DNA of 64,000 nucleotides from IMG/VR virus record IMGVR_UViG_3300024346_000007; one strand, written 5' to 3'. Numbering within the stretch: position 1 is the stretch's first letter; every line of letters begins with the position of its first letter. Made by a program: the position numbers and the translations under genes. A model generated the notes under the pieces. That model was not told where the DNA came from, searched no databases, and was given only the letters and a program-made list of their open reading frames with translations. The stretch comes from a virus. Positions 1,346-61,353 of the stretch are shown one piece after another.

Positions 1346-1627
1346 CTATTTTTTAGCGGCTCTCGGAGACTTATAGTCCGGGGTTTGTTCTTTTCTCTTG
1401 GCTAAATCTTCCATACTCATGGTAGTTCCCTTACTATTAGCCTTTTCCATCTCATCATTATGCTTTTTAATAATGTCAGACAGCTTCTTTATGTTAATTA
1501 ATCTATATGCTATAGGCATATGATATGCCATTGCATAGTTTATAGCACCTTGGCTATTCATAGATAGCCACAATAGTTCGTCAAATAGTTGATTCCTATA
1601 CGCCGAGTTCAGGCCAAAAAAAGTCAA
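1346..1627 (-). CDS. Tail assembly chaperone C-terminal extension (gpT/T4 gp51-like), probably reached by frameshift
   Basis: The overlap region has only a TTG start. It overlaps the upstream gene at a U7 run and sits just before the tape measure gene. Contains an AYHMPIAYR motif. Confidence 0.65.
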   Translation of the reverse strand: MTFFGLNSAYRNQLFDELLWLSMNSQGAINYAMAYHMPIAYRLINIKKLSDIIKKHNDEMEKANSKGTTMSMEDLAKRKEQTPDYKSPRAAKK

Positions 1628-2360
1628 CCGTCATCGGTATGCTTAGGCCCTCCACTACCTCTCCATTCTTCCTAGTGAAATCAAACTTCATTATGATGTC
1701 TGGTGTGGAAGTTACCATATGCTTTCTTAGATCTTGTGAGTCTCTCATAGGCATTGCCTTGATGAAGTCTCTTACTACTTTCTTATCTCTATCTCCATTA
1801 ATAGCCACGATAGAATGTGCTAAACGTACAGTAATCTCAGCAGACATGTTCTTGTTTATCTTCTGCAACCCTTTGATCTCGGCTTCAATAGCTGATTCAT
1901 CTTTATGGGTGAGGATCTTATAAGTGACTAGCTGCTTTGACATAGGCAGTTGATAATCAAACTCATTCTGTCCTTTCTTTATAGAATCCCAATCAAGTTC
2001 TTTCTCTTTCAACTCAGAAAGATCAACAGTTACCTCTTCTGATTGATTTGAAGTAGGGTCTGTGTACTTGAATGCATACTTGCTGCCATATGCGAGGATC
2101 CTAGCTCCTATCATGATGGCATTCTTATCTCCGACTAGGAGTTCATTATAGTCGATCTTTGAGGCTATAATAGCCTGTAGGAACTTATCTATAACCGTAC
2201 CCTGTTGAATGAAGTTCCTATTGGTTAGGATGTCTTCATGCATTGCTGTCGGGAGGTAGAGATCAATTTGTCCTGAACTGAGTGGGCTTGATTCTGGATA
2301 GAGTAGACCTTTAGATGGAAGGTCTAGAGGCTGTGTTGGAACATTTAGTAATTCTGACAT
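1596..2360 (-). CDS. Tail/baseplate hub assembly chaperone (T4 gp26-like)
   Basis: Motifs LPSKGLLYP, EDILTN, LLVGDKNAIMIGARILAYG and a C-terminal DFFWP. The real start is probably ATG 2360 (MSELLN), just after the late motif at 2379-2386. Confidence 0.7.
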   Translation of the reverse strand: MSELLNVPTQPLDLPSKGLLYPESSPLSSGQIDLYLPTAMHEDILTNRNFIQQGTVIDKFLQAIIASKIDYNELLVGDKNAIMIGARILAYGSKYAFKYTDPTSNQSEEVTVDLSELKEKELDWDSIKKGQNEFDYQLPMSKQLVTYKILTHKDESAIEAEIKGLQKINKNMSAEITVRLAHSIVAINGDRDKKVVRDFIKAMPMRDSQDLRKHMVTSTPDIIMKFDFTRKNGEVVEGLSIPMTVDFFWPELGV

Positions 2361-2406: not shown

Positions 2407-2445
2407 AAAAGAAAAACCACACCCGGTCTAAGAGATGTGGCTTTC
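2407..2445 (-). terminator. Probable intrinsic terminator
   Basis: Minus strand GCCACATCTC-TTAGACC-GGGTGTGGT followed by TTTTCTTTT, downstream of the stop at 2476. Confidence 0.55.
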
Positions 2446-2475: not shown

Positions 2476-3237
2476 TTACTTGACCAGTTTTGTTATATCT
2501 GTGCCATCTATATCTTTAACACCGTGTTTTAAAACTAAAGTTTTATATATGCCGGGAATTGCTTTTTTATAATCTGTATCGGCGCCTCCAAAGATAGGAT
2601 AATATTCCTGTGTAGTAAATTGTCCTGGGTTACCATCCATTTTTGATCTGTTTACCATCATAAATGGCTCTCTAGTCTTTAATAAGAAGTTTTGCATGGC
2701 TTTTAATTCAAGAGGGGATAATCCAAGATCAGAAGCATCGTCTCCCCTTCTTATAACTTGCATTTCATATTGAATGCTTTTTATTAAAGCATCTTGGCTA
2801 CTAAAATCATTCAGGCTACTATTTGGATTGGCTTTTAAATAGGCATCTAACTTTTGTCTACCTAAAGTAGGAACTCCTTTATCTAATTCAGGGCTGCCAG
2901 CTTCTTTACCTAAGGATTTTAAATACTCATTCCAATCCTTTTTTTGCTGAACAGTAAGGGGTACATATCCAGAAGGTTTTGGAATATTTGCATCTATCTT
3001 TATATCTTCTGTACCCGAAGTATATGATTTTATAACAGAAACTAGTTCTGCTGTGTTGTCTGCAGCTTTAATATCTTGTGCTAGTGCCTTCGCTTTATCA
3101 GCTGAGATATTAGTTGGGATAGATTTCGCTAGGCTGCTAGCGGTTTGTTGTGCTTTTGCAGGTGCCATAGAAGCTAAAGTAATTAAAGCAGTAGCTATAA
3201 TCTCTTTAAATCCCTCGTCTAACTGTTCAGTATCTAC
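2476..3237 (-). CDS. Hypothetical protein, probable -1 frameshift extension of the 3234-3899 gene
   Basis: The frame is open upstream of ATG 3168 through VDTEQLDEGFKEIIATALITLASMAPAKAQQ to the A9G run. There is no ATG/GTG/TTG in that extension. Confidence 0.65.
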   Translation of the reverse strand, partial: VDTEQLDEGFKEIIATALITLASMAPAKAQQTASSLAKSIPTNISADKAKALAQDIKAADNTAELVSVIKSYTSGTEDIKIDANIPKPSGYVPLTVQQKKDWNEYLKSLGKEAGSPELDKGVPTLGRQKLDAYLKANPNSSLNDFSSQDALIKSIQYEMQVIRRGDDASDLGLSPLELKAMQNFLLKTREPFMMVNRSKMDGNPGQFTTQEYYPIFGGADTDYKKAIPGIYKTLVLKHGVKDIDGTDITKLVK

Positions 3238-3899
3238 TTTTTTTTTACCCAGCCTTCTTTCAAAGAATGCTTTAGCATTACTCTTGCAAGTTTTTCCTCG
3301 TCAAGTTCTTTTTCTTTGCTTTGCATTTGCTGTTTCATAGCAATTACCTTTTCAATAGGCATCTTCTTCATCATCTTACCTACAGCATCTTTATCCTTTA
3401 CTATCTTTCCAAGATGCTTCTCAATAGCTTTTAGATGGCCTTGTGCGTCTTTCTCTTTAGCAGCTTGGTCTTTCTCTTCTAACATGGTTTCATGTCCTGT
3501 AAGGGCTTCTAATGCAGCCTTAGCAGATTCCATTTGCTTCATTGCCTTAGCAGCAAGCTTTTGTTTCTTAGGATCTTTAGATCCTTCTGACATTGCTTTT
3601 AATTTCTCTACGATTTCTGCTACTTGTCCGGCTATTTCTGTACCGGTTGGTTGTTGTTCCATATCTGGTTGTACCATTTCTTCTTCGTTTTCTTTTTCTT
3701 TAAGTGTCGACACTTCTTCTGGCTTTATTATTTGTATTGCTTTCTTATTTTTTAACTCTTGTCTAGCCTGTTCTTTATCTTTAATGTCTGTAATACCTGA
3801 GTATTCTCCTGTACTAGAAACATATATTGTTTTCTTTTCGTTTAACTCTTCGTTAATTATCTTCTTAATAAGTGCGTCAAGCTTTTGAGTTTGCTTCAT
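3234..3899 (-). CDS. Putative internal head/core protein (Lys/Glu-rich, multiple [LI]xE sites)
   Basis: N-terminus LIKKIINEELNE; charged coiled coil; late motif upstream; ends GTA AAA AAA AAG TAG. Confidence 0.6.
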   Translation of the reverse strand: MKQTQKLDALIKKIINEELNEKKTIYVSSTGEYSGITDIKDKEQARQELKNKKAIQIIKPEEVSTLKEKENEEEMVQPDMEQQPTGTEIAGQVAEIVEKLKAMSEGSKDPKKQKLAAKAMKQMESAKAALEALTGHETMLEEKDQAAKEKDAQGHLKAIEKHLGKIVKDKDAVGKMMKKMPIEKVIAMKQQMQSKEKELDEEKLARVMLKHSLKEGWVKKK

Positions 3900-3952
3900 T
3901 TTTATTACAATTTGTGTATATAAATATCAAAAATACGGTATAAATATATAAA

Positions 3953-4546
3953 TTAAAAACCTTCTTCTATAAATATCTTCTCTAACCTCTTAGGTAACTT
4001 GGTATAATTCATATTAAACTTGTCTGGCATAGCTGCTATAATCTTTTTATTGCTGTATGGACTGTTTTTAGGAGTACACCAACGCCTAGAAATAAGCATA
4101 TAGTTATAAAACATGACATAACTGTTGGCTTTTTTTCTATAACTTAGGATATCTACTGGTAGGTCAAACTTTTTTATGATATCTACGCTTCTTTTTTCAT
4201 TATCCAGTTCTAAGTCTCTACAGTTTGCTATATGTTCTTCTATATCTGGTACTTCTTTACCTCCTAACCAAGCATCTAACTCAGGCATACTATAATTTAC
4301 AGACTTCCATAGGGGTATATTATCTACCCATTGGGTCAAATGTCCGTATTCATGCGCTAATATCTCTACAGCATCCTTACGTTTCATGGAACATACCAGA
4401 GTTGGCACTGATTCGTCAAAATACCCTGAAGCTTTTATAGAATCTGATATCTTTACGTACGTGGTGTTCCTCAAATCACACTTAACATGATAATGTTCAC
4501 ACTCAGATTTAACGTGTGCTATAAATCTAGATGTGTTTATATTCAT
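3953..4546 (-). CDS. Zincin-like HExxH metallopeptidase-domain protein
   Basis: ILAHEYGHLTQW followed by a downstream ELDNE. Confidence 0.6.
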   Translation of the reverse strand: MNINTSRFIAHVKSECEHYHVKCDLRNTTYVKISDSIKASGYFDESVPTLVCSMKRKDAVEILAHEYGHLTQWVDNIPLWKSVNYSMPELDAWLGGKEVPDIEEHIANCRDLELDNEKRSVDIIKKFDLPVDILSYRKKANSYVMFYNYMLISRRWCTPKNSPYSNKKIIAAMPDKFNMNYTKLPKRLEKIFIEEGF

Positions 4547-4610: not shown

Positions 4611-5099
4611 CTAGAAGTTCAGGATCATTCCTGAGTTTCCAAGTGTCATTTCGATAGTTGTATAAGCGTCAGCTGACCAATCCCAGTCTCCAAAAGAACT
4701 TACATTCTTAATGAAGGCCTTCTTAATCACCCACTCATTAACTACGTTACCAACAGGATCTACTGCGTTGAAAGTAATATCCTTCCAGTAGAAATCTCCA
4801 TATCCAGCCCTACCAGTTACGGTTTCGTATCCTAAACGAGCCCATTCCATTACGGCTTGTGCACCTGAAGGGGTTACTGGGTTATAAAGACTAAGGGTAA
4901 CGTCATTCCACCTACGTTTAGCGCGGAATTTTACATAAGAGTTAATATGATCTATGATCACCTCACCGTCATCGTATCCTATACCGCCTACTTTTTTGAT
5001 CAAGTATGAAGGGATACCATCGATATACATGATAAACCTGTGTTGCAGCATGGGCTCGAACAAGGTACCCAACATCTCATCTGTACTAAGTAATGCCAT
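4611..5099 (-). CDS. Tail tube protein (T4 gp19-like)
   Basis: 162 aa directly after the sheath gene. FEPMLQHRFIMYIDGIP, WNDVTLSLYNP, AQAVMEWARL, DPVGNVVNEW are typical tube-protein features. Confidence 0.85.
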   Translation of the reverse strand: MALLSTDEMLGTLFEPMLQHRFIMYIDGIPSYLIKKVGGIGYDDGEVIIDHINSYVKFRAKRRWNDVTLSLYNPVTPSGAQAVMEWARLGYETVTGRAGYGDFYWKDITFNAVDPVGNVVNEWVIKKAFIKNVSSFGDWDWSADAYTTIEMTLGNSGMILNF

Positions 5100-5132: not shown

Positions 5133-7379
5133 TTATTCAAAACTTACTCCAGTACCTGTGATGTTGAATTCCAACAAGATGAATTCGATAGACTTAACAG
5201 GAGACACGTAGATTTTACCTACAAGCTGGTTACGATCAATTACATCGTTAGTATTAAGTGAATCACTTAGATCAATCCTGAAGGCATACAGACCTTGACG
5301 AGACTGTACGTTCTCCATGTATGGAGTGATAGCAGAGATCAACTTGTTTCTAGTAGCTGCAGTGTTGTTCTCGAACACGTAGTTAAGAGCTACACCACTG
5401 ATGTATTCACGAAGATTGATTAACAACCTACGTACATTGATGCGGTTAAGAGCTGTGTCTCTAACTTGTAGAGTTTTCTGACCCCAGATTACTACTCCAG
5501 TGTTCTGGAATTTAGCGATCGGGTTAACTCTACCGTTGTAAAGAGCATCTCTATCAGCCTTTGTTAGACGGATACGAGTGTCAATTGCATTACCAAGACC
5601 ACCACGATTCAAACCTGCAGGTGCAAACCATTCAGCAGCTACCTTATCATTGTAAGCGTAGGCTTGTGGAACTACAACTGTTGGTGGAACGTATATGTCT
5701 TTAGAAGTTCCTATGCTACGAACCTTAACCCAAGGGAAGTAAGCAGCGCTATAGCTAGAATCAAGACCAGCTGCAGTAGTTATTGCTGTTACTACAGAAG
5801 CATTAAGACTAGTTAGATCACGAAGATATACACAATCTGTGCGCTCTTCTGCTGTGCTTTGAGCTACTGCTGTTACTGATGAGTGATACTCTTCAAGTAC
5901 ACCAGGTACCGCTATAAGATCGAAATTGTAAAGTTCTTTGTTAGCTATGATGTTCAAAGCTTTGATGTAAGCAACAGATCCAGGAGATGTGCTGTTAGTC
6001 AAATCATATCCGAACAAGTTACCTTGAGTTATGTCAGCTCCTGATTTCTTAATTACTGTGTAGTTTACACCATCTGTACCACCTTGGAAAGGAAGAACAA
6101 ACTTGTTATCGCCTGCTGGCTTAGTAAACGCCACGTTAAGACCAGCACCAGCGTTAGTTGGTATTGGGTTTAAGTAGTTATAGTTATCAGAGTTTGCATA
6201 GTTAAATCCTGAGAAGGTTGCACTAGATGCTGTACTTTGAACCATTGCAGCTGCTGGTAAGTTTCTTCCAGTAAAGCCGGCTATAGTTTCGTACAAAGCA
6301 GCGTGTCCGTTTGGATACAACTGAGGATGTATTGATTTTCCAGATACTCCACCAGCTACCTCTACACGAATGTAGTTAGATACGTTAGCGAAATCTCCAA
6401 ATTCTAATACATTTAAAGACAATTCATTAAACTGCTGGTACTTATCACCAATCATCTTAGAGATGTAGTTAGCAGCATCTGGGTTTAATGAAAGATTGTT
6501 GTACTGTTCGATGATAGAAGGCACTCTATCTGAGTCATTCCATGCACGAACTATGATGCTAAAGCTAGAGTAATCTTTTGAAGTAGCTCCTGCTGTTATA
6601 TTAGTTACGCATACTTTAACGTCTTTGTTGGTTTTGAAGCCATCAGACCTGTGGTGGAACCTAAATAAAGGAACACCGCTGTCAGAATATACCCATGGAG
6701 TTATTGCATGGTCGTAGCCGCTTGAGTTAGAACTAGAGAACTCACATTTACCTGCAAGGTATTCTAGTTTTCCACCAATGTCATCTGCAGAAGCTAATGC
6801 GCCACTTCCAGTAATAAAGTTACTGAAAAGTAAATAAGGGAATACTGAACTAGTTGCATAGTTCTCATCTGATCCTAACACCTTTGAAATAAAGATAGCA
6901 GATGTTGGATTAAGTGATGCACTAAAAGAAGCAGTTCCTAATACACCGCTGCCAGTACTTGCATGCATTTTAGCACCAAAAGCACTAAAAGTTCCTGTGA
7001 TAGATCCAGATATACCTACTGTAGGTGTATCATTTTTTGTAGGATACAATACTGAAAGGATGTATGATCCACTTGTGATGGCCACCAAAGTCCTAGAAGA
7101 ATTGTATACAAATCCACCATTACCAAGTACACGAGTTACTTTAACGGTGTTTCCTGCTTGCAAATAGTTGTAAGCAGTTTGTGGTAGATATGATACATTA
7201 GGATCTGACCCAAATAAAGCTGTGTACTGGCTGTAGCTAGACACATCAGTAGGAACGAATGCAGCACCTTTTTCAGTAGGTCCTACAAGGGCTAAACCCG
7301 TCTCATTCGTGCCTTGAGTATAATAACTCTGGTCATTTTCGTAGGAGTAAACTCCAGCAGAAAGAATTTGTTCTGTCAT
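5133..7379 (-). CDS. Contractile tail sheath protein (T4 gp18-like)
   Basis: N-terminal SAGVYSYENDQS...LVGPTEKG. C-terminal WFAPAGLNRG, RVNPIAKF, IWGQKTLQ, ALNRINVRRLL, PVKSIEFILLEF. Confidence 0.95.
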   Translation of the reverse strand: MTEQILSAGVYSYENDQSYYTQGTNETGLALVGPTEKGAAFVPTDVSSYSQYTALFGSDPNVSYLPQTAYNYLQAGNTVKVTRVLGNGGFVYNSSRTLVAITSGSYILSVLYPTKNDTPTVGISGSITGTFSAFGAKMHASTGSGVLGTASFSASLNPTSAIFISKVLGSDENYATSSVFPYLLFSNFITGSGALASADDIGGKLEYLAGKCEFSSSNSSGYDHAITPWVYSDSGVPLFRFHHRSDGFKTNKDVKVCVTNITAGATSKDYSSFSIIVRAWNDSDRVPSIIEQYNNLSLNPDAANYISKMIGDKYQQFNELSLNVLEFGDFANVSNYIRVEVAGGVSGKSIHPQLYPNGHAALYETIAGFTGRNLPAAAMVQSTASSATFSGFNYANSDNYNYLNPIPTNAGAGLNVAFTKPAGDNKFVLPFQGGTDGVNYTVIKKSGADITQGNLFGYDLTNSTSPGSVAYIKALNIIANKELYNFDLIAVPGVLEEYHSSVTAVAQSTAEERTDCVYLRDLTSLNASVVTAITTAAGLDSSYSAAYFPWVKVRSIGTSKDIYVPPTVVVPQAYAYNDKVAAEWFAPAGLNRGGLGNAIDTRIRLTKADRDALYNGRVNPIAKFQNTGVVIWGQKTLQVRDTALNRINVRRLLINLREYISGVALNYVFENNTAATRNKLISAITPYMENVQSRQGLYAFRIDLSDSLNTNDVIDRNQLVGKIYVSPVKSIEFILLEFNITGTGVSFE

Positions 7380-7739: not shown

Positions 7740-7973
7740 TTATATTTCCCATTTACCTAAAGGACAAGCCTCACTACCTGGTAAAGGGGAAAAGATTTTC
7801 TTTTTAAGGGGACATCCACATTTACCACAGTAGTGGTAAGCTAATATTTCACTAAGTTTATTTTCCTCACATCCATTACAAATGGAGATTCTATTCTCAG
7901 CTTTTTTTTTATCTTCTTCGTTTGGATTCGCAGCGATAATCCAAGCTGAAGCTATTTCTAGTAATTTATTCAC
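7740..7973 (-). CDS. Small Cys-rich (metal-binding) protein
   Basis: CNGC...CGKCGC...CPLGKW. Confidence 0.65.
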   Translation of the reverse strand: MNKLLEIASAWIIAANPNEEDKKKAENRISICNGCEENKLSEILAYHYCGKCGCPLKKKIFSPLPGSEACPLGKWEI

Positions 7974-29214: not shown

Positions 29215-29278
29215 ATGTATGAGTCTCTAAGTGTATTTACACGCAGCTTTCGCTGGCCTATATAGGCGTATATAAATA
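29212..29278 (-). promoter_or_regulatory. Late motif plus structured 5' leader with tandem hairpins
   Basis: TATTTATA followed by GCC-TATATA-GGC, CAGC-GAAA-GCTG, GTG-TAAATA-CAC and CA-TACATA-TG, the last overlapping the ATG. Confidence 0.55.
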
Positions 29279-29308
29279 TGAATAAAAACTCTATATTTCA
29301 GGATAGAC

Positions 29309-37273: not shown

Positions 37274-37612
37274 TTAAAGTTCGATTATAGGGGATGTCCA
37301 GGCCTCTGTGCTTAGTAGAGTTAGGATGTCTTCGTGGTTATATTCTTGGTAACTAGAGGAGTATATGGATGGTCTACCGTATATTCCAGCTTGTACTGTA
37401 TAGCTTCCAGTTTGGCCAGTTTCAGCATTATAATATGATTGAGTATAGCTTGCTGTTATTTCGTTTATCTCATACTTTACAAAGGTTTGTGTAGTATCTA
37501 TGCTATATCTAAGGCTTTCAGGGGAATATTCTATTACTTGGTTATAGTCAATAGATCCCGTAATTGTTGTCGGTATTACTAGCCATCTTCTATTTGGGAA
37601 TACTTCACTCAT
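37274..37612 (-). CDS. Small virion-associated protein, paralog of 20872-21132
   Basis: Shared motifs TFVK and WTSPI; follows a LamG cluster as its paralog does. Confidence 0.7.
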   Translation of the reverse strand: MSEVFPNRRWLVIPTTITGSIDYNQVIEYSPESLRYSIDTTQTFVKYEINEITASYTQSYYNAETGQTGSYTVQAGIYGRPSIYSSSYQEYNHEDILTLLSTEAWTSPIIEL

Positions 37613-37623
37613 ATATATAAATA

Positions 37624-38835
37624 TTAAGTTAAACTAAAGCGAGTTTTGTAGTGATTGTAGTTTTGAGTTATTTCTGCTTGGGTAAGTGTTCTACTGTATA
37701 TTTTACCGACATATATGTTTCCGTCCATAAGATATGCCGGAGCCCATGGATATCTACCCACTTCAAAATTATTCCCTGTTCCTGTATACGCTGTTTGTGT
37801 TGATGTTACATCGTATACTCCGTTTACGTAGATTGTTTTTGAAGCTGTGGATTGGTTATATACCCAGTGTATTAAATAATACTTTCCAGCAGATAAAGTA
37901 ATAGTTCCTATTAGATCATTGTTATAAAAACCAAAATATGCTTTAGCTGTTCTTTCCCCTAAATGCAATCCATTAGAATTACTTGCAACCCCGTGTCCAA
38001 AAATAGCGTTATCAACACTGCCAGCTTTACTAACAGTATCAAATTTTACTACAGCTTCCATAGTCCACGAGCTACTATTTAAACTAGCATCAGTTACTCC
38101 ATTGGTTGATACATAATCATCAGTACCATCAAATACAATTTGTGCATTAGAATCAAAGGATACGCTAGTTAAATCTAAAGTCGCTGCTGGATTAGCTAAA
38201 TTTATCAAGCCTTGAGTAACTGATCTTGTACCATTTATAAATTGGGATATAGTAGTGCTATTTAGATCTTCTTTGAAAGGGCCAGCCCAATATATAGTAA
38301 TGGGAACATTTATAGTAGCTCCAGAAGGATTAATAGCCCAATACTTACCGTCAGTTCTTGTTACTGTATCATACCAAAGAACCTTAGCTCTAAACCACCC
38401 ATCTCCCATACTTTCGTATTGATCACTACTCTGCCAACCAGCAATGTTTGAATAGTTAGTAAATATAGGACTACTAAACATCGGGCCTACGGGTTTAAAA
38501 AAAATAGTATGCCCAGTATATCTGTTGGCTATACCTCCACCTCCGGTAGTTACTACTCCAATTCCTGGATTGTTACCATTGGTTAGGTAGGATACCCCTG
38601 TACTAGTTGTAGGGGTTATTACTTCTTTCCATATAGAGGCTCCTTTATAAGAATCGGATGTTTGAGTTAAGGTTATACTAACATCTCCACCTACGTTATT
38701 ATATATACTTATACCAGCATTTGCTATTAGATTATCAGTAGGTCTTCCTTTATAGCTATTTATTTTATCACCAGTATCATACGCAAATATGAGATTATTT
38801 GTTGTTACTTTACTGTATCCTTGTTGTCCTCCCAT
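37624..38835 (-). CDS. LamG-domain protein with an inserted domain
   Basis: LIFAYDTGD...FDGTDDY...IYSRTLTQAEITQNYNHYKTRF. Confidence 0.75.
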   Translation of the reverse strand: MGGQQGYSKVTTNNLIFAYDTGDKINSYKGRPTDNLIANAGISIYNNVGGDVSITLTQTSDSYKGASIWKEVITPTTSTGVSYLTNGNNPGIGVVTTGGGGIANRYTGHTIFFKPVGPMFSSPIFTNYSNIAGWQSSDQYESMGDGWFRAKVLWYDTVTRTDGKYWAINPSGATINVPITIYWAGPFKEDLNSTTISQFINGTRSVTQGLINLANPAATLDLTSVSFDSNAQIVFDGTDDYVSTNGVTDASLNSSSWTMEAVVKFDTVSKAGSVDNAIFGHGVASNSNGLHLGERTAKAYFGFYNNDLIGTITLSAGKYYLIHWVYNQSTASKTIYVNGVYDVTSTQTAYTGTGNNFEVGRYPWAPAYLMDGNIYVGKIYSRTLTQAEITQNYNHYKTRFSLT

Positions 38836-54323: not shown

Positions 54324-54932
54324 TTAGCAGTGGCAAACACCGGTATTATTGCAAATTAAATCTTTAACTATCTTATCTATACTATCGTATGACTTTTTAG
54401 TTGCTTCATATCCTTCTCTGAGGCTTAGGTTGGCCCCTTGGGTTGATTCAAAGGACACTAAATCAAAGGTAAGAAGATTAAAATCATCATTAACAGTAAC
54501 GGTACCATCATGTGATTCTTGTACACTTCCCATACCTCTTGAACTAATACCTACTGGAATGCCTCTACGAAGCAATCCTGCGGCTATTCTGCCTGCTGGG
54601 AACTCATCTCCGTCTAGTATTTCAATATCTCCACATACATCATCTCCTTTCCAGTATATCTTCTTGATATTATGTGATACGTTCTTTAGATTCACTACGT
54701 TAGAATCACTGTGGTCTAGTTCTCCTAAAGCACGGTTAGCTTTTACCATAGTATCATTGTACTTATCTATCTCTCTCCTCAATACATCTGAAGGATATAC
54801 CCTGCCATTCCTATTTTTAGCATTAGAACGTTGTATAATCACTCCTGTGATCATCATAGGCTTACCAGGTTCGTATGCTTCTAATAGCTGATTCGGTAAT
54901 TGTATCTGATGGTATTCTGTAAGTACTTGCAT
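54324..54932 (-). CDS. Prohead protease (T4 gp21-like)
   Basis: NRNGRVYP, ALGELDH, VSHNI, GISSRGMGS, FDLVS. Confidence 0.95.
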   Translation of the reverse strand: MQVLTEYHQIQLPNQLLEAYEPGKPMMITGVIIQRSNAKNRNGRVYPSDVLRREIDKYNDTMVKANRALGELDHSDSNVVNLKNVSHNIKKIYWKGDDVCGDIEILDGDEFPAGRIAAGLLRRGIPVGISSRGMGSVQESHDGTVTVNDDFNLLTFDLVSFESTQGANLSLREGYEATKKSYDSIDKIVKDLICNNTGVCHC

Positions 54933-54943
54933 GTTGTATATAA

Positions 54944-57799
54944 TTATATTCCTTTTATTTTTTTGAAAATCATTTCATCTGTAACATTTTTTTCATCATT
55001 AGGGTCCTTATTGTCATCAGATATTCCTTTAGCTTGCCTAAACACAGATATTAAACCTTCTGCATTTTTTGCACTTCCCTTTGCTTTTATAGCATCTTTA
55101 AGCTGCGGTGTTATATTAGCAACCAATCTATCTAACTGGTCAGCTCCTTGACCTTTAGTTGCCACTGGCCCTTGTTCAGCTACTCTACCGCCTCTAGCAG
55201 TCAAAGAGTCTGGATTGTATGGCTGTGTAAGCTGTGATCCTAATGGAGAGTCAGAAGCATAGTCTAATTGATCTAGATCTGATACTTGATACCCTTCTGG
55301 TGCATATGAATTGAATATTGCTATTGCATCTACGCCCATTGCTTGTAGTTCATGTACTAGTTTAGATACTATAGCATGTTTAGCACTGCCGTTAGCGTGT
55401 GTGTAAGGATTATCACTGTCTTGAAAACCCCAATCATACTTCTTTAGATACTCTTCAAGACGCTTTTTTTTTACATCTTTACCTTGATATCCCCAATACT
55501 GGCTTACTTCGGCTTCTTTGATTGCCTCACGAATACGCTTACGAATATATGATTCCATTGCCTCGTTAGCAGGGCTAGGAAATACTTTATCTAGTACTTT
55601 ATTAAGAGGATCCATTGTATCTTGTATCTTTGTAACCTTCTTATCTGGGGCTTCGTATGTACCTGTAACGTTTCCGTTTTTAGTTCCAACAAACATTGCT
55701 TTTCCAGCACTAGTCAATTCTACTATTAGTTCATTTTTATCTTTATTGAACATAGCACTTTTTACAGTATCTGATACGTTTAATGTTTTGTCTGCGTCTG
55801 TAGGGTCTTGTATTATAAAAGAGACTCTAGAAGTTTCTATTTTTTTCTTATCTTCTTTAGATAAGTCTTCATCTATGTCCACTCTTTTCGCTTTCATTTC
55901 TGCTTTTTGATAAACAGAATATCCAGGTCCCATTTTTTTAGCTATTTCCATAGCTTCTACTCTATCATCGGTTCCAAGAGGCCCACCATCAGCATCTCTC
56001 AATAATCTACCGTTTGGATACTTCTCCGTATCATTTTTATCTACTATATAATATTTGTACGTTAGATCAGATGGGTTTATAGTTGCCATTTTAACTCCCA
56101 TATTAACAGGTACGCTTATAAACCTACCCATTTGCTTAACAGTTTTCATTTCTGGCTTTTCTGCCTTTACTTTATCTTGAGTAGCTTTTTCTTTACCGGG
56201 TTCAGATCTAAAAGTAGTTAGTACTTTTGTAAGATCACTTTTTTGACCTACTGGGCTTTTGCTTTTTAATACTATGCTTCCTTTTCTAACTGGGCCAACA
56301 GACATCTTTTGGTTAAATTGAAGAGGTACTCCAACTTCAATATCTTCAAAAGCTATATCTTTATTGTCAGGATCAGACTTAACAAATTTAAGTATCTGAC
56401 CTACACTCATGTCTGCTACATTTTCTTTTCCGCCATCTATTGTTAGCCCTACTTTATACTTAGGACCTTCATCAGCTTTAGCTATAGTTGGCTCATCTAC
56501 TGGTTTATCTTTAGAAGCTTTTGGCTCTTCCTTATAATCTTCAATAGATTTAAATCCGCTTTCTAAACCTTTTGCAGATTTAAAGTTTCTAACTTGAGTA
56601 TCTGTGAGACTTATAATATACTCCCCTGTAGCTGTTTCTCCTTTATCATCAATATTCTTTTTAGCTACTTTACTGTTAATTAAAGTACCATCTAGTTTGC
56701 TTCCTGGAATGGTTTTAATTAGATACTTCTTCCTTGCTTCTTCCTCGTTTAAAAAAGAACTTTCTTTAAGGCTTTTCATATTATCGTATATTAATTTTAT
56801 CATTTTATATAGGTCACCTTTATTATCTTTGTCTAATCTATTTTTTATTATATACTCTATAGCAGCATCTCTTTCTGATTCTTTTTCTATAGAATCAAAC
56901 AACTTATTCAGAAATATTTTTATAGAGTTTCCTACTTCTTCTTTTGCTTTTTTCTTTTCTGCGTCTGGTATTGATGTTGTTTTTGATAGATCATAATTGT
57001 TTTTTATCTTATTTAATATTCTATCATTGTCTAATACAAACCCAGAGGCAGCTGCTTTATCTTCTTTAGAAAAATTATCTGCTACATCCGTTGTTTTAGA
57101 AGCTTGGGGCTCCGGTATTTCCTCATCTGCTGGTTCTTCCATGTCAGCTTCATCATAAAGAAAACTAAGATCTACGTCTAGAGGCTCTTCTTCATCACCA
57201 GTTGATGTAGCAGGTGTTGATTTTACCCTCTTAAGTTTTTGCTTTTCTCTATCAGTTAAAAAACTATTAAAAGTAAATAAGTCCATAGGCCTTTTACTTA
57301 AACCTTCAGAAATATCTTTTATAGGAACTAGTACTAGCTTTATCTTATCTTTTTGTTCATTAGTTAATCCTTTAACTACATCCTCTTTTAGATATATGTA
57401 ATAAGTATGGTCCGCACCAGTCCTTCTTCCAAATCTAGCCTTTGGTATAGTTATATAGTATATGTCTATGTAATGATTAGGTTCTGAGCTGGTAGGTGAT
57501 ACTAAGGTCGATACTTTAGGATTTACATTTTGTTTTAGATCTTTAAAATCTTGCTCTGAAATAGACCTATATATAGTGTATATTTTTTGACGTACCCCTT
57601 TAGTAAGGTTGTTAAATCTTATTTCGTGTACCGATCCTGCCTTATATGAAGATTTTAACCCTTCTGGGTTTATATTTAATCCGTATGTTTTTGAAGCTTT
57701 TTTAGGAGGCTCCATTTCATCCCTCGTCCGTCTCTTCCTTTTTATAGGATCTTCTTCGGCTTCGTTAAAGAAATCATATATTTCAGACTGTAGGCCCAT
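54944..57799 (-). CDS. Large Lys/Glu-rich putative internal head protein (951 aa)
   Basis: Lies between the portal and protease genes; multiple [LIF]xE sites (FFNE, LKE, FLNE, IRE, IKE). Confidence 0.6.
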   Translation of the reverse strand: MGLQSEIYDFFNEAEEDPIKRKRRTRDEMEPPKKASKTYGLNINPEGLKSSYKAGSVHEIRFNNLTKGVRQKIYTIYRSISEQDFKDLKQNVNPKVSTLVSPTSSEPNHYIDIYYITIPKARFGRRTGADHTYYIYLKEDVVKGLTNEQKDKIKLVLVPIKDISEGLSKRPMDLFTFNSFLTDREKQKLKRVKSTPATSTGDEEEPLDVDLSFLYDEADMEEPADEEIPEPQASKTTDVADNFSKEDKAAASGFVLDNDRILNKIKNNYDLSKTTSIPDAEKKKAKEEVGNSIKIFLNKLFDSIEKESERDAAIEYIIKNRLDKDNKGDLYKMIKLIYDNMKSLKESSFLNEEEARKKYLIKTIPGSKLDGTLINSKVAKKNIDDKGETATGEYIISLTDTQVRNFKSAKGLESGFKSIEDYKEEPKASKDKPVDEPTIAKADEGPKYKVGLTIDGGKENVADMSVGQILKFVKSDPDNKDIAFEDIEVGVPLQFNQKMSVGPVRKGSIVLKSKSPVGQKSDLTKVLTTFRSEPGKEKATQDKVKAEKPEMKTVKQMGRFISVPVNMGVKMATINPSDLTYKYYIVDKNDTEKYPNGRLLRDADGGPLGTDDRVEAMEIAKKMGPGYSVYQKAEMKAKRVDIDEDLSKEDKKKIETSRVSFIIQDPTDADKTLNVSDTVKSAMFNKDKNELIVELTSAGKAMFVGTKNGNVTGTYEAPDKKVTKIQDTMDPLNKVLDKVFPSPANEAMESYIRKRIREAIKEAEVSQYWGYQGKDVKKKRLEEYLKKYDWGFQDSDNPYTHANGSAKHAIVSKLVHELQAMGVDAIAIFNSYAPEGYQVSDLDQLDYASDSPLGSQLTQPYNPDSLTARGGRVAEQGPVATKGQGADQLDRLVANITPQLKDAIKAKGSAKNAEGLISVFRQAKGISDDNKDPNDEKNVTDEMIFKKIKGI

Positions 57800-61306: not shown

Positions 61307-61353
61307 AATTATTAGTAATTTATCATTTTAATATATATAAATATCGAGTATTA

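Follow-up and report, generated by a model that had tools for sequence, protein, structure and literature searches.

How is a reading frame expressed that opens directly behind a late phage gene and has no start codon at its beginning? The question is raised by a locus in a 64,000-nucleotide (nt) stretch of viral DNA, IMGVR_UViG_3300024346_000007 (the whole stretch is referred to as the window, and gene order was read within it), which comes from an uncultured T4-like phage, a member of a clade of uncultured T4-like phages. On the minus strand, which carries every gene of the window, the open reading frame (ORF) that we call ORF-A ends GGC TGG GTA AAA AAA AAG TAG: a run of nine adenines (A9) overlaps the heptamer A_AAA_AAG, which is in phase with the 0 frame and is directly followed by the stop codon. 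The −1 frame, which reads ...GKKKVDTEQLDEGFKEIIATALITLASMAPAKAQQ... around this site, runs without a stop between the TGA at 3303..3301 and its end at 2478..2476, and the part of it that continues from the run, ORF-B, comprises 253 codons (coordinates are collected in Table 1). The sole canonical start codon (ATG, GTG or TTG) in this frame ahead of the conserved domain of ORF-B is the ATG at 3168.

A first-pass annotation, made from the letters of the window, had proposed that −1 recoding at A9 appends the downstream frame to ORF-A as a fusion of about 474 amino acids (aa). Its reading of the ORF-A end as GTA AAA AAA AAG TAG with nine adenines matches the sequence in letters and coordinates, frame reading bears out the lack of ATG, GTG or TTG upstream of 3168, and a shift at the last Lys codon joins 221 and 253 residues into 474 aa. 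We consider it very likely that ORF-A and ORF-B belong to a single late transcription unit that is decoded in two ways through programmed −1 recoding at the A9 run. Standard decoding would yield the 221-aa ORF-A protein, ending at the TAG just after the last Lys codon, while a minority of products (a ratio that we infer) would pass into the −1 frame at A9, acquire 253 more residues and become the 474-aa ORF-A–ORF-B fusion. The sequence comparisons described below demonstrate the site and its conservation, show that the extension ahead of the ATG is coding, and reveal the modular history of the locus.

Conservation of the A9 arrangement

The homologous locus was taken from 14 further contigs (IMG/VR, JGI, ENA and Logan). 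Twelve of the 14, independent relatives from JGI, ENA and Logan assemblies, have exactly A9, an immediate 0-frame stop and ORF-B in the −1 frame, with an ORF-B identity of 41–83% (lowest in L012, 41%). The site that appends the 253-aa frame to ORF-A is thus real and conserved in 12 relatives, which share an arrangement of the kind that the first-pass annotation had proposed to look for in homologs. After the run come GTA or CTA and then G or A, that is, the 0 frame ends AAG TAG/TAA or AAC TAA/TAG, and the −1 frame reads K-K-K-V/L onward into ORF-B. The in-phase heptamer is present at all 12 A9 sites, as A_AAA_AAG or, in three relatives, as A_AAA_AAC. The codon ahead of the Lys codons is GTA, ATA, TCA or TTA (V, I, S or L), with the third base always A: since the encoded amino acid varies and the final A is constant, it is the run length of nine that is conserved, beyond the heptamer. 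Nor would drift be expected to leave AAA runs intact in every genome, given that 76% of the Lys codons in ORF-B are AAA. An A9 run by itself is not significant, as the coding strand of the window has three of them against ~3.2 expected from base composition; the significance lies in the whole arrangement being conserved in relatives.

Clustered proteins give a wider view. Among 128 ORF-A clusters, 49 end right after the K-run, eight are of the A10 type, 44 end EGWIK or EGWTK without a K-run, 26 end otherwise and one is fused; shift-type clusters make up 57 of the 128 and fused ones 1 of the 128. A single ORF read through an A10 run, which the first-pass annotation had named as the finding that would speak against recoding, is therefore confined to 1 of the 58 shift-type or fused clusters. 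An exhaustive ORF-B search of 1.84 billion representatives returned no other protein longer than ~310 aa that covers the N-terminal region of ORF-B.

The exceptions to the common arrangement are informative as well. Over the sites compared, A9 is found in 12 relatives and A10 at three sites. Contig L011 has two A9 runs and L006 two A10 runs, in each case flanking an inserted module of ~115 aa, and each of the two requires exactly one net −1 shift: in L011 the module continues the frame of ORF-A and it is the second run (TTA AAA AAA AAG TAA) that takes the shift, and in L006 the shift falls at the first run, the module sharing the frame of ORF-B. Contigs L023 and L024 have A10 and encode a natural in-frame fusion of 466 aa (P0209), from which it follows that a fusion protein is viable. 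In L025 ORF-A ends EGWIK and no ORF-B comes after it.

A start-less extension that evolves as coding sequence

Between the run and ATG 3168 lie 23 codons. In five loci, that of the window among them, the ORF-B frame offers no start codon ahead of the Met that lies within the signal-peptide-like segment described below. Over the 29 codons after the run, the variable columns number 14, 7 and 20 at the first, second and third codon position, respectively, a pattern by which the extension evolves as coding sequence. Furthermore, when the natural fusion is aligned by BLAST with the stand-alone relatives P0041 and P0044, homology sets in at residue 1 or 2 after the K-run, and the extension is, judged by these alignments, homologous to the N-termini of stand-alone relatives. 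Taken together, the coding pattern, the homology from the K-run onward and the lack of earlier start codons led us to reject independent initiation at ATG 3168; the first-pass annotation had named such a start, with an unconserved upstream extension, as a contrary outcome, and the extension proves to be conserved. Gene callers split or truncate both proteins, and annotations of ORF-B always lack its first 23 or more residues.

Ribosomal frameshifting or polymerase slippage

Two routes could lead into the −1 frame. In the first, Lys-tRNAs would slip on A_AAA_AAG with the stop codon waiting in the A site; this heptamer is the dnaX-type site, the most shift-prone one in bacteria (PMC5009743). In the second, RNA polymerase would insert one extra A on the A9/T9 tract, runs of nine A or T being known to cause slippage (PMC5009743). 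The conservation of the adjacent stop favours a ribosomal event, and the conservation of the seventh-to-ninth adenines 5′ of the heptamer favours polymerase slippage; we put ribosomal frameshifting and slippage at roughly even odds, and both might contribute.

Both routes have well-known counterparts. The locus resembles E. coli dnaX and IS1 in its in-phase heptamer, in the N-terminus shared by the two products and in the nearby 0-frame stop. Unlike the E. coli dnaX and insertion sequence (IS) sites, it has neither a conserved downstream stem-loop nor a conserved upstream Shine-Dalgarno (SD)-like element; the shift yields a longer protein here and a shorter one in dnaX, and the likely hosts may not use SD pairing at all. 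With the A9/T9 slippage sites of Thermus thermophilus dnaX, Shigella spa13 and mxiE, Citrobacter tssM and IS elements the locus shares the conserved full length of nine adenines and a frame that is restored by one extra A, as in the natural A10 allele; it differs from them in that the adjacent stop, for which slippage has no need, is conserved.

Several observations weigh against programmed recoding at this site. We found no conserved downstream RNA structure (fold z = −0.74 in the window, alignment consensus energy −2 kcal/mol), and the only stem in the consensus fold begins ~30 nt past the run. An SD-like AGG/GGG lies upstream at ORF-A ends but is missing at the L006b, L011b and L012 sites; the conserved adjacent stop codon could serve as the stimulator. 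The window has two further in-frame A9 runs, so A9 alone is not diagnostic; in this, too, the locus differs from the slippage sites listed above. The A10 allele means that the tract varies at the DNA level too, and the arrangement in L002 (no A-run, an ORF-A that is 30 codons longer, and an ORF-B with its own ATG and a 110-aa leader) means that covalent fusion is not obligatory for ORF-B function. Lastly, and in this it again differs from those slippage sites, the recoding proposed here is deduced from DNA sequences.

The two further A9 runs served as controls. The run at 55464-55472 reads GTA AAA AAA AAG in frame (DVKKKRLEE) inside a 951-aa ORF of the head module (57799..54944). It is kept in three relatives at 58–66% identity; a −1 shift there would in the window lead to a stop after two codons and to a product without the last ~170 residues, and in L028 the −1 frame at the corresponding run has no immediate stop. 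The run at 7902-7910 is in frame in a 77-aa Cys-rich ORF (EEDKKKAEN). Seven relatives do not conserve it (DKEKAE and others), and it has probably arisen by chance.

ORF-B as a mobile module

ORF-B consists of a short acidic stretch with an [LI]-x-E motif, then (A)G-x-K-D/E and a signal-peptide-like segment, and a well-modelled domain. The [LI]-x-E motif (L-D-E in the window) is found in 27 of 28 family members, 4–5 residues ahead of an uncharged stretch whose length is constant at ~15 residues. This stretch has a mean Kyte-Doolittle value of 2.2 over its best 12 residues and ends P-A-K-A, with A-K-A at 3159..3151 followed by Q. A27 and A29 do not vary across 24 sequences, the A-x-A mostly precedes Q across the family, and remote relatives carry AEA, AQA, VQA or AKA at the same position. 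The signal-peptide-like anatomy that the first-pass annotation had described, with its LDE, AKA and Q, is thus a conserved property of the family at the level of motifs, and at that level the segment has the h-region and AxA c-region pattern of Sec/signal peptidase I substrates. An N-terminal placement with a short positive n-region was not found in the fusion: the segment lies ~234 residues from the fusion N-terminus and would therefore become N-terminal only through a cut at [LI]xE. In stand-alone relatives, which start MKxxxLLKE..., it follows a mostly acidic leader of 12–35 residues.

The structure model of ORF-B has a predicted local distance difference test score (pLDDT) of 81, rising above 90 in the C-terminal domain. 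No convincing match to it was found in the PDB (Foldseek; VIA-align), BFVD or ESM Atlas, the best VIA-align hit (Z = 6) being limited to the low-confidence helical N-terminus. Neither Pfam nor PHROGs has a family for ORF-A or ORF-B, and PDB sequence profiles gave nothing meaningful for either. ORF-A, ORF-B, the locus as a whole and the remote relative P0044 have no DNA or protein match in 50,697 cultured phage genomes, where the relative P0047 matches through an unrelated C-terminal part only; a language-model atlas search gave no usable lead. The ORF-B domain recurs in large proteins, one of which, P0055, combines it with a phage tail lysozyme domain and matches to virion-structural PHROGs; Pfam searches on the partner regions of remote proteins with the ORF-B domain found PF18013 in P0055 and nothing else.

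We read ORF-B as a mobile cargo module which in other phages stands alone behind a short leader and which, in the A9 clade, has landed out of frame behind ORF-A, to be expressed through recoding only. By its sequence the site belongs to a known class, that of phage late proteins to which recoding adds a mobile C-terminal module at a set ratio, albeit with an unusual cargo. A mobile domain behind a late protein, made at a low fixed ratio, is also what characterises the extensions of T3/T7 gene 10 and of the Listeria phages A118, A500 and PSA. As with Ig-like domain extensions (the Fraser and Hendrix model, PMC5009743), in-frame, out-of-frame and stand-alone versions coexist; unlike those decorations, ORF-B opens with a signal-peptide-like segment and carries an uncharacterised globular domain. 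The two-run variants and the in-frame allele show homopolymer runs at which domain shuffling is in progress, as Hendrix proposed for Ig-like domains. The signal-like segment and the globular domain of ORF-B may have a role at the cell envelope.

Two observations concern stand-alone and remote relatives. P0043 (270 aa, starting MKKIKSFEEFEKLNEE...) is a stand-alone relative of ORF-B at 4001-4813 of L022, another T4-like contig, between a GT10 glycosyltransferase and GIY-YIG homing endonucleases and near a gp13-like gene and a GH25 lysozyme. P0047 and P0048 share a C-terminal motif of ~20 residues (Y-D/N-L/M-T/S-..-E/D-..-Y-I/L-...-G-.-E-I/L-...), which may serve virion proteins of other phages as a common docking tail.

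Could the fusion be packaged and exported?

What the fusion might do depends in part on ORF-A, a Lys/Glu-rich helical protein whose 21-aa N-terminal leader and C-terminal ...SLKEGWVKKK are conserved, the middle being variable. The leader is the most conserved part of the protein: M1, I11, E17, E18 and E21 are invariant, and it contains two [LI]xE motifs (I-N-E at 15–17 and L-N-E at 19–21). The middle is hypervariable, total lengths among relatives ranging from 205 to 734 aa, and the structure model is of low confidence (pLDDT 65).

The first-pass annotation had taken ORF-A for a core-like, head-internal protein whose N-terminal leader brings the fusion into the head, where it is cut after L-D-E, to be exported by Sec after ejection. 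In such a scheme the acidic leader (here the whole of ORF-A) would mask the Sec signal, and the gp21-like prohead protease would unmask it at [LI]xE, exposing a signal made of GFKE, the h-region and AKA ahead of Q; the next host would then export the protein to its envelope. We regard this as unlikely, although several features fit. T4 gp21 cleaves after L/I-X-E, and 10-aa N-terminal capsid targeting sequences bring varied proteins into T4 heads (PMC9026906). A gp21-like protease is encoded in the window, and with it ORF-A has, at the motif level, what marks a T4-type head-internal protein: a leader ending L/I-X-E in a genome with a gp21-family protease. The [LI]-x-E of ORF-B keeps its fixed distance from the stretch ending A-x-A, the leaders of stand-alone relatives fit too, and in the fused clade hardly any [LI]xE occurs within mature ORF-B (1 seen, ~22 expected over 14 sequences). 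The short conserved leader, the variable body and the hyperplastic locus further recall the internal proteins and Alt of T4.

Set against this, ORF-A has no homology to any head protein in the searches of Pfam, PHROGs, PDB and cultured phage genomes described above, nor to T4 IPI-III or Alt, so that the link to the latter exists at the level of motifs. Nor does its position support the 'head protein' of the first-pass annotation: the gene is part of the tail module, some 50 kb away from the head module, and has a promoter-like motif and a terminator-like hairpin of its own. The [LI]xE motif is frequent in Lys/Glu/Leu-rich helices, and the seven copies in ORF-A compare with 4.4 expected (p = 0.12); the 14 sequences of the depletion test are related to one another, and the stand-alone relatives show no such depletion. 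The Q after AKA would fit the Bacteroidetes Q rule only if the host were of that phylum. We know of no precedent for a phage protein that is re-exported by Sec after its ejection. If the scheme were true, an incoming phage would deliver a protein that the Sec machinery of its new host exports to the periplasm, in a copy number set by recoding at A9 and with a cargo exchangeable at A-runs; the masked signal-like segment with its near-invariant [LI]xE and AxA makes this new routing of a phage protein to the host envelope a testable hypothesis.

The tail chaperone position

With a −1 shift close to the 3′ end of a gene for a helical protein that lies between those for tube and tape measure, the locus also calls to mind the lambda G/GT pair of tail assembly chaperones, whose frameshift is widespread among long-tailed phages (PMC5009743). 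On that account the tape measure protein would be the binding partner of ORF-A, and the fusion would contribute a tube-recruiting T domain, with neither present in the virion. We hold this to be improbable and dropped the identification on grounds of gene order and distribution. Unlike lambda gpG/gpGT, ORF-A and ORF-B are not adjacent to the tape measure gene, as a gene for a gp26-like hub protein and a 93-aa frame with a T7 run intervene, and it is this latter pair that distant relatives keep. In Flavobacterium phage immuto and Microcystis phage Mel-JY01, distant cultured relatives with a sheath identity of 37–39%, no other gene separates the tube gene from the hub-like gene, and both ORF-A and ORF-B are absent. 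ORF-B is moreover optional: L025, the one locus examined among those whose ORF-A lacks the K-run (44 of the 128 clusters), is without it, elsewhere it is a stand-alone gene, and its domain occurs in large proteins with tail-lysozyme and virion-structural-protein matches. Pfam, PHROG and PDB sequence searches gave no match of any kind, chaperones included, for either ORF, and the ORF-A model is too weak for a fold comparison.

The gp26-like gene ends ...DFFWPELGV*, and an overlapping +1 (or −2) frame reads TFFGLNS.YRN..., with the T7 run at 1616-1622 (region 1346-2360). An ATG is lacking near the start of this frame, whose end lies just ahead of the tape measure gene. The frame and the gp26-like gene are both kept at the protein level in all relatives examined, including L012, the most distant locus, and Mel-JY01 has a similar small overlapping ORF. 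The canonical tail chaperone position is that of the gp26-like gene and the 93-aa frame, not that of ORF-A and ORF-B.

Between the tube gene and the gene for an HEYGH-motif protein, close relatives have one to three extra ORFs of 139–267 aa (L015 106-1892, L017 825-1628, L021 502-1629). With ORF-A and ORF-B missing from distant relatives and extra ORFs present in close ones, the region downstream of the tube gene is, by gene content, a plastic insertion hot spot and not the canonical chaperone position. The A9 run adds a well-supported recoding site outside that position, conserved in at least 57 protein clusters of uncultured T4-like phages.

Variation of the tract and independent expression

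Homopolymers of nine to ten are mutable, and the tract might toggle between A9 and A10 during replication, in which case the fusion would come from an A10 subpopulation only and neither RNA polymerase nor the ribosome would need to recode. The natural A10 in-frame allele, seen in three contigs from at least two samples, and the differing run lengths of L006 and L011 fit such phase variation, which we nonetheless think quite improbable: 57 shift-type clusters stand against one that is fused, and the immediate 0-frame stop, which phase variation alone does not require, is kept across changes in the −1 frame, whether synonymous or not. Recoding and phase variation are not mutually exclusive.

The weakest alternative, very improbable in our view, is that the run is a homopolymer error hiding a true A10 and one 474-aa ORF, or that two unrelated genes lie side by side with ORF-B starting at ATG 3168: some platforms are error-prone at homopolymers, and gene callers do call a 230-aa ORF from this ATG, but the identical A9 in 12 independent assemblies from different pipelines and the near-absence of fused calls among 15 billion proteins exclude a systematic assembly error, and a start at 3168 would delete the conserved extension and halve the signal-like segment in a family that has no conserved start and whose homology to stand-alone relatives spans the extension.

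Promoter-like motifs and neighbouring genes

ORF-A has a late-promoter-like motif of its own, ATATTTATATAYAC, of which the window has six copies against 0.28 expected, each 10–25 nt upstream of the start of a late or structural gene. The copies precede the genes for the tape measure, the gp26-like protein, ORF-A, a 1467-aa fibre-like protein, a 112-aa ORF and the portal, and the motif is a candidate for the late promoter of the phage. In L025, which has ORF-A only, a terminator-like hairpin equivalent to that behind ORF-B comes immediately after ORF-A. No tRNA genes were found in the window.

Table 1. Features of the ORF-A/ORF-B locus and of related genes, in coordinates of the window
Feature	Position	Strand	Remarks
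Tail sheath gene	7379..5133	−	phrog_23, E = 5e-70
Tail tube gene	5099..4611	−	
HEYGH-motif protein gene	4546..3953	−	197 aa
Late-promoter-like motif ATATTTATATACAC	3914..3927	−	14 nt upstream of ORF-A start
ORF-A	3899..3234	−	221 aa
A9 homopolymer, putative slip site	3246..3238	−	
Heptamer A_AAA_AAG	3243..3237	−	in phase with 0 frame
0-frame stop TAG	3236..3234	−	directly 3′ of heptamer
ORF-B	3237..2476	−	−1 relative to ORF-A; 253 codons plus stop, reachable by shift only
Predicted junction peptide of ORF-A–ORF-B fusion			...EGWVKKKVDTEQLDE...
Start-less extension	3169..3237	−	23 codons (VDTEQLDEGFKEIIATALITLAS) before first ATG
L-D-E motif	3214..3222	−	[LI]-x-E type
Signal-peptide-like segment	3151..3201	−	15-residue uncharged stretch IIATALITLASMAPA
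C-terminal globular domain of ORF-B	2479..2985	−	residues ~85-253, confidently modelled
Intrinsic-terminator-like hairpin and T-run	2412..2445	−	directly after ORF-B stop
gp26-like hub protein gene	2360..1596	−	PF12322
93-aa frame		−	overlaps gp26-like gene
Tape measure gene	from 1314	−	
gp21-like protease gene	54932..54327	−	phrog_207, E = 4e-47; in head module
Copies of ATATTTATATAYAC	1324-1337, 2374-2387, 3914-3927, 29266-29279, 37611-37624, 61331-61344	−	

Lastly, the 197-aa protein encoded between the tube gene and ORF-A carries an HEYGH (HExxH) motif and has weak matches only, to putative metallopeptidase families (DUF6782, E = 0.03). Its gene adjoins ORF-A also in the lineage without ORF-B, represented by L025.

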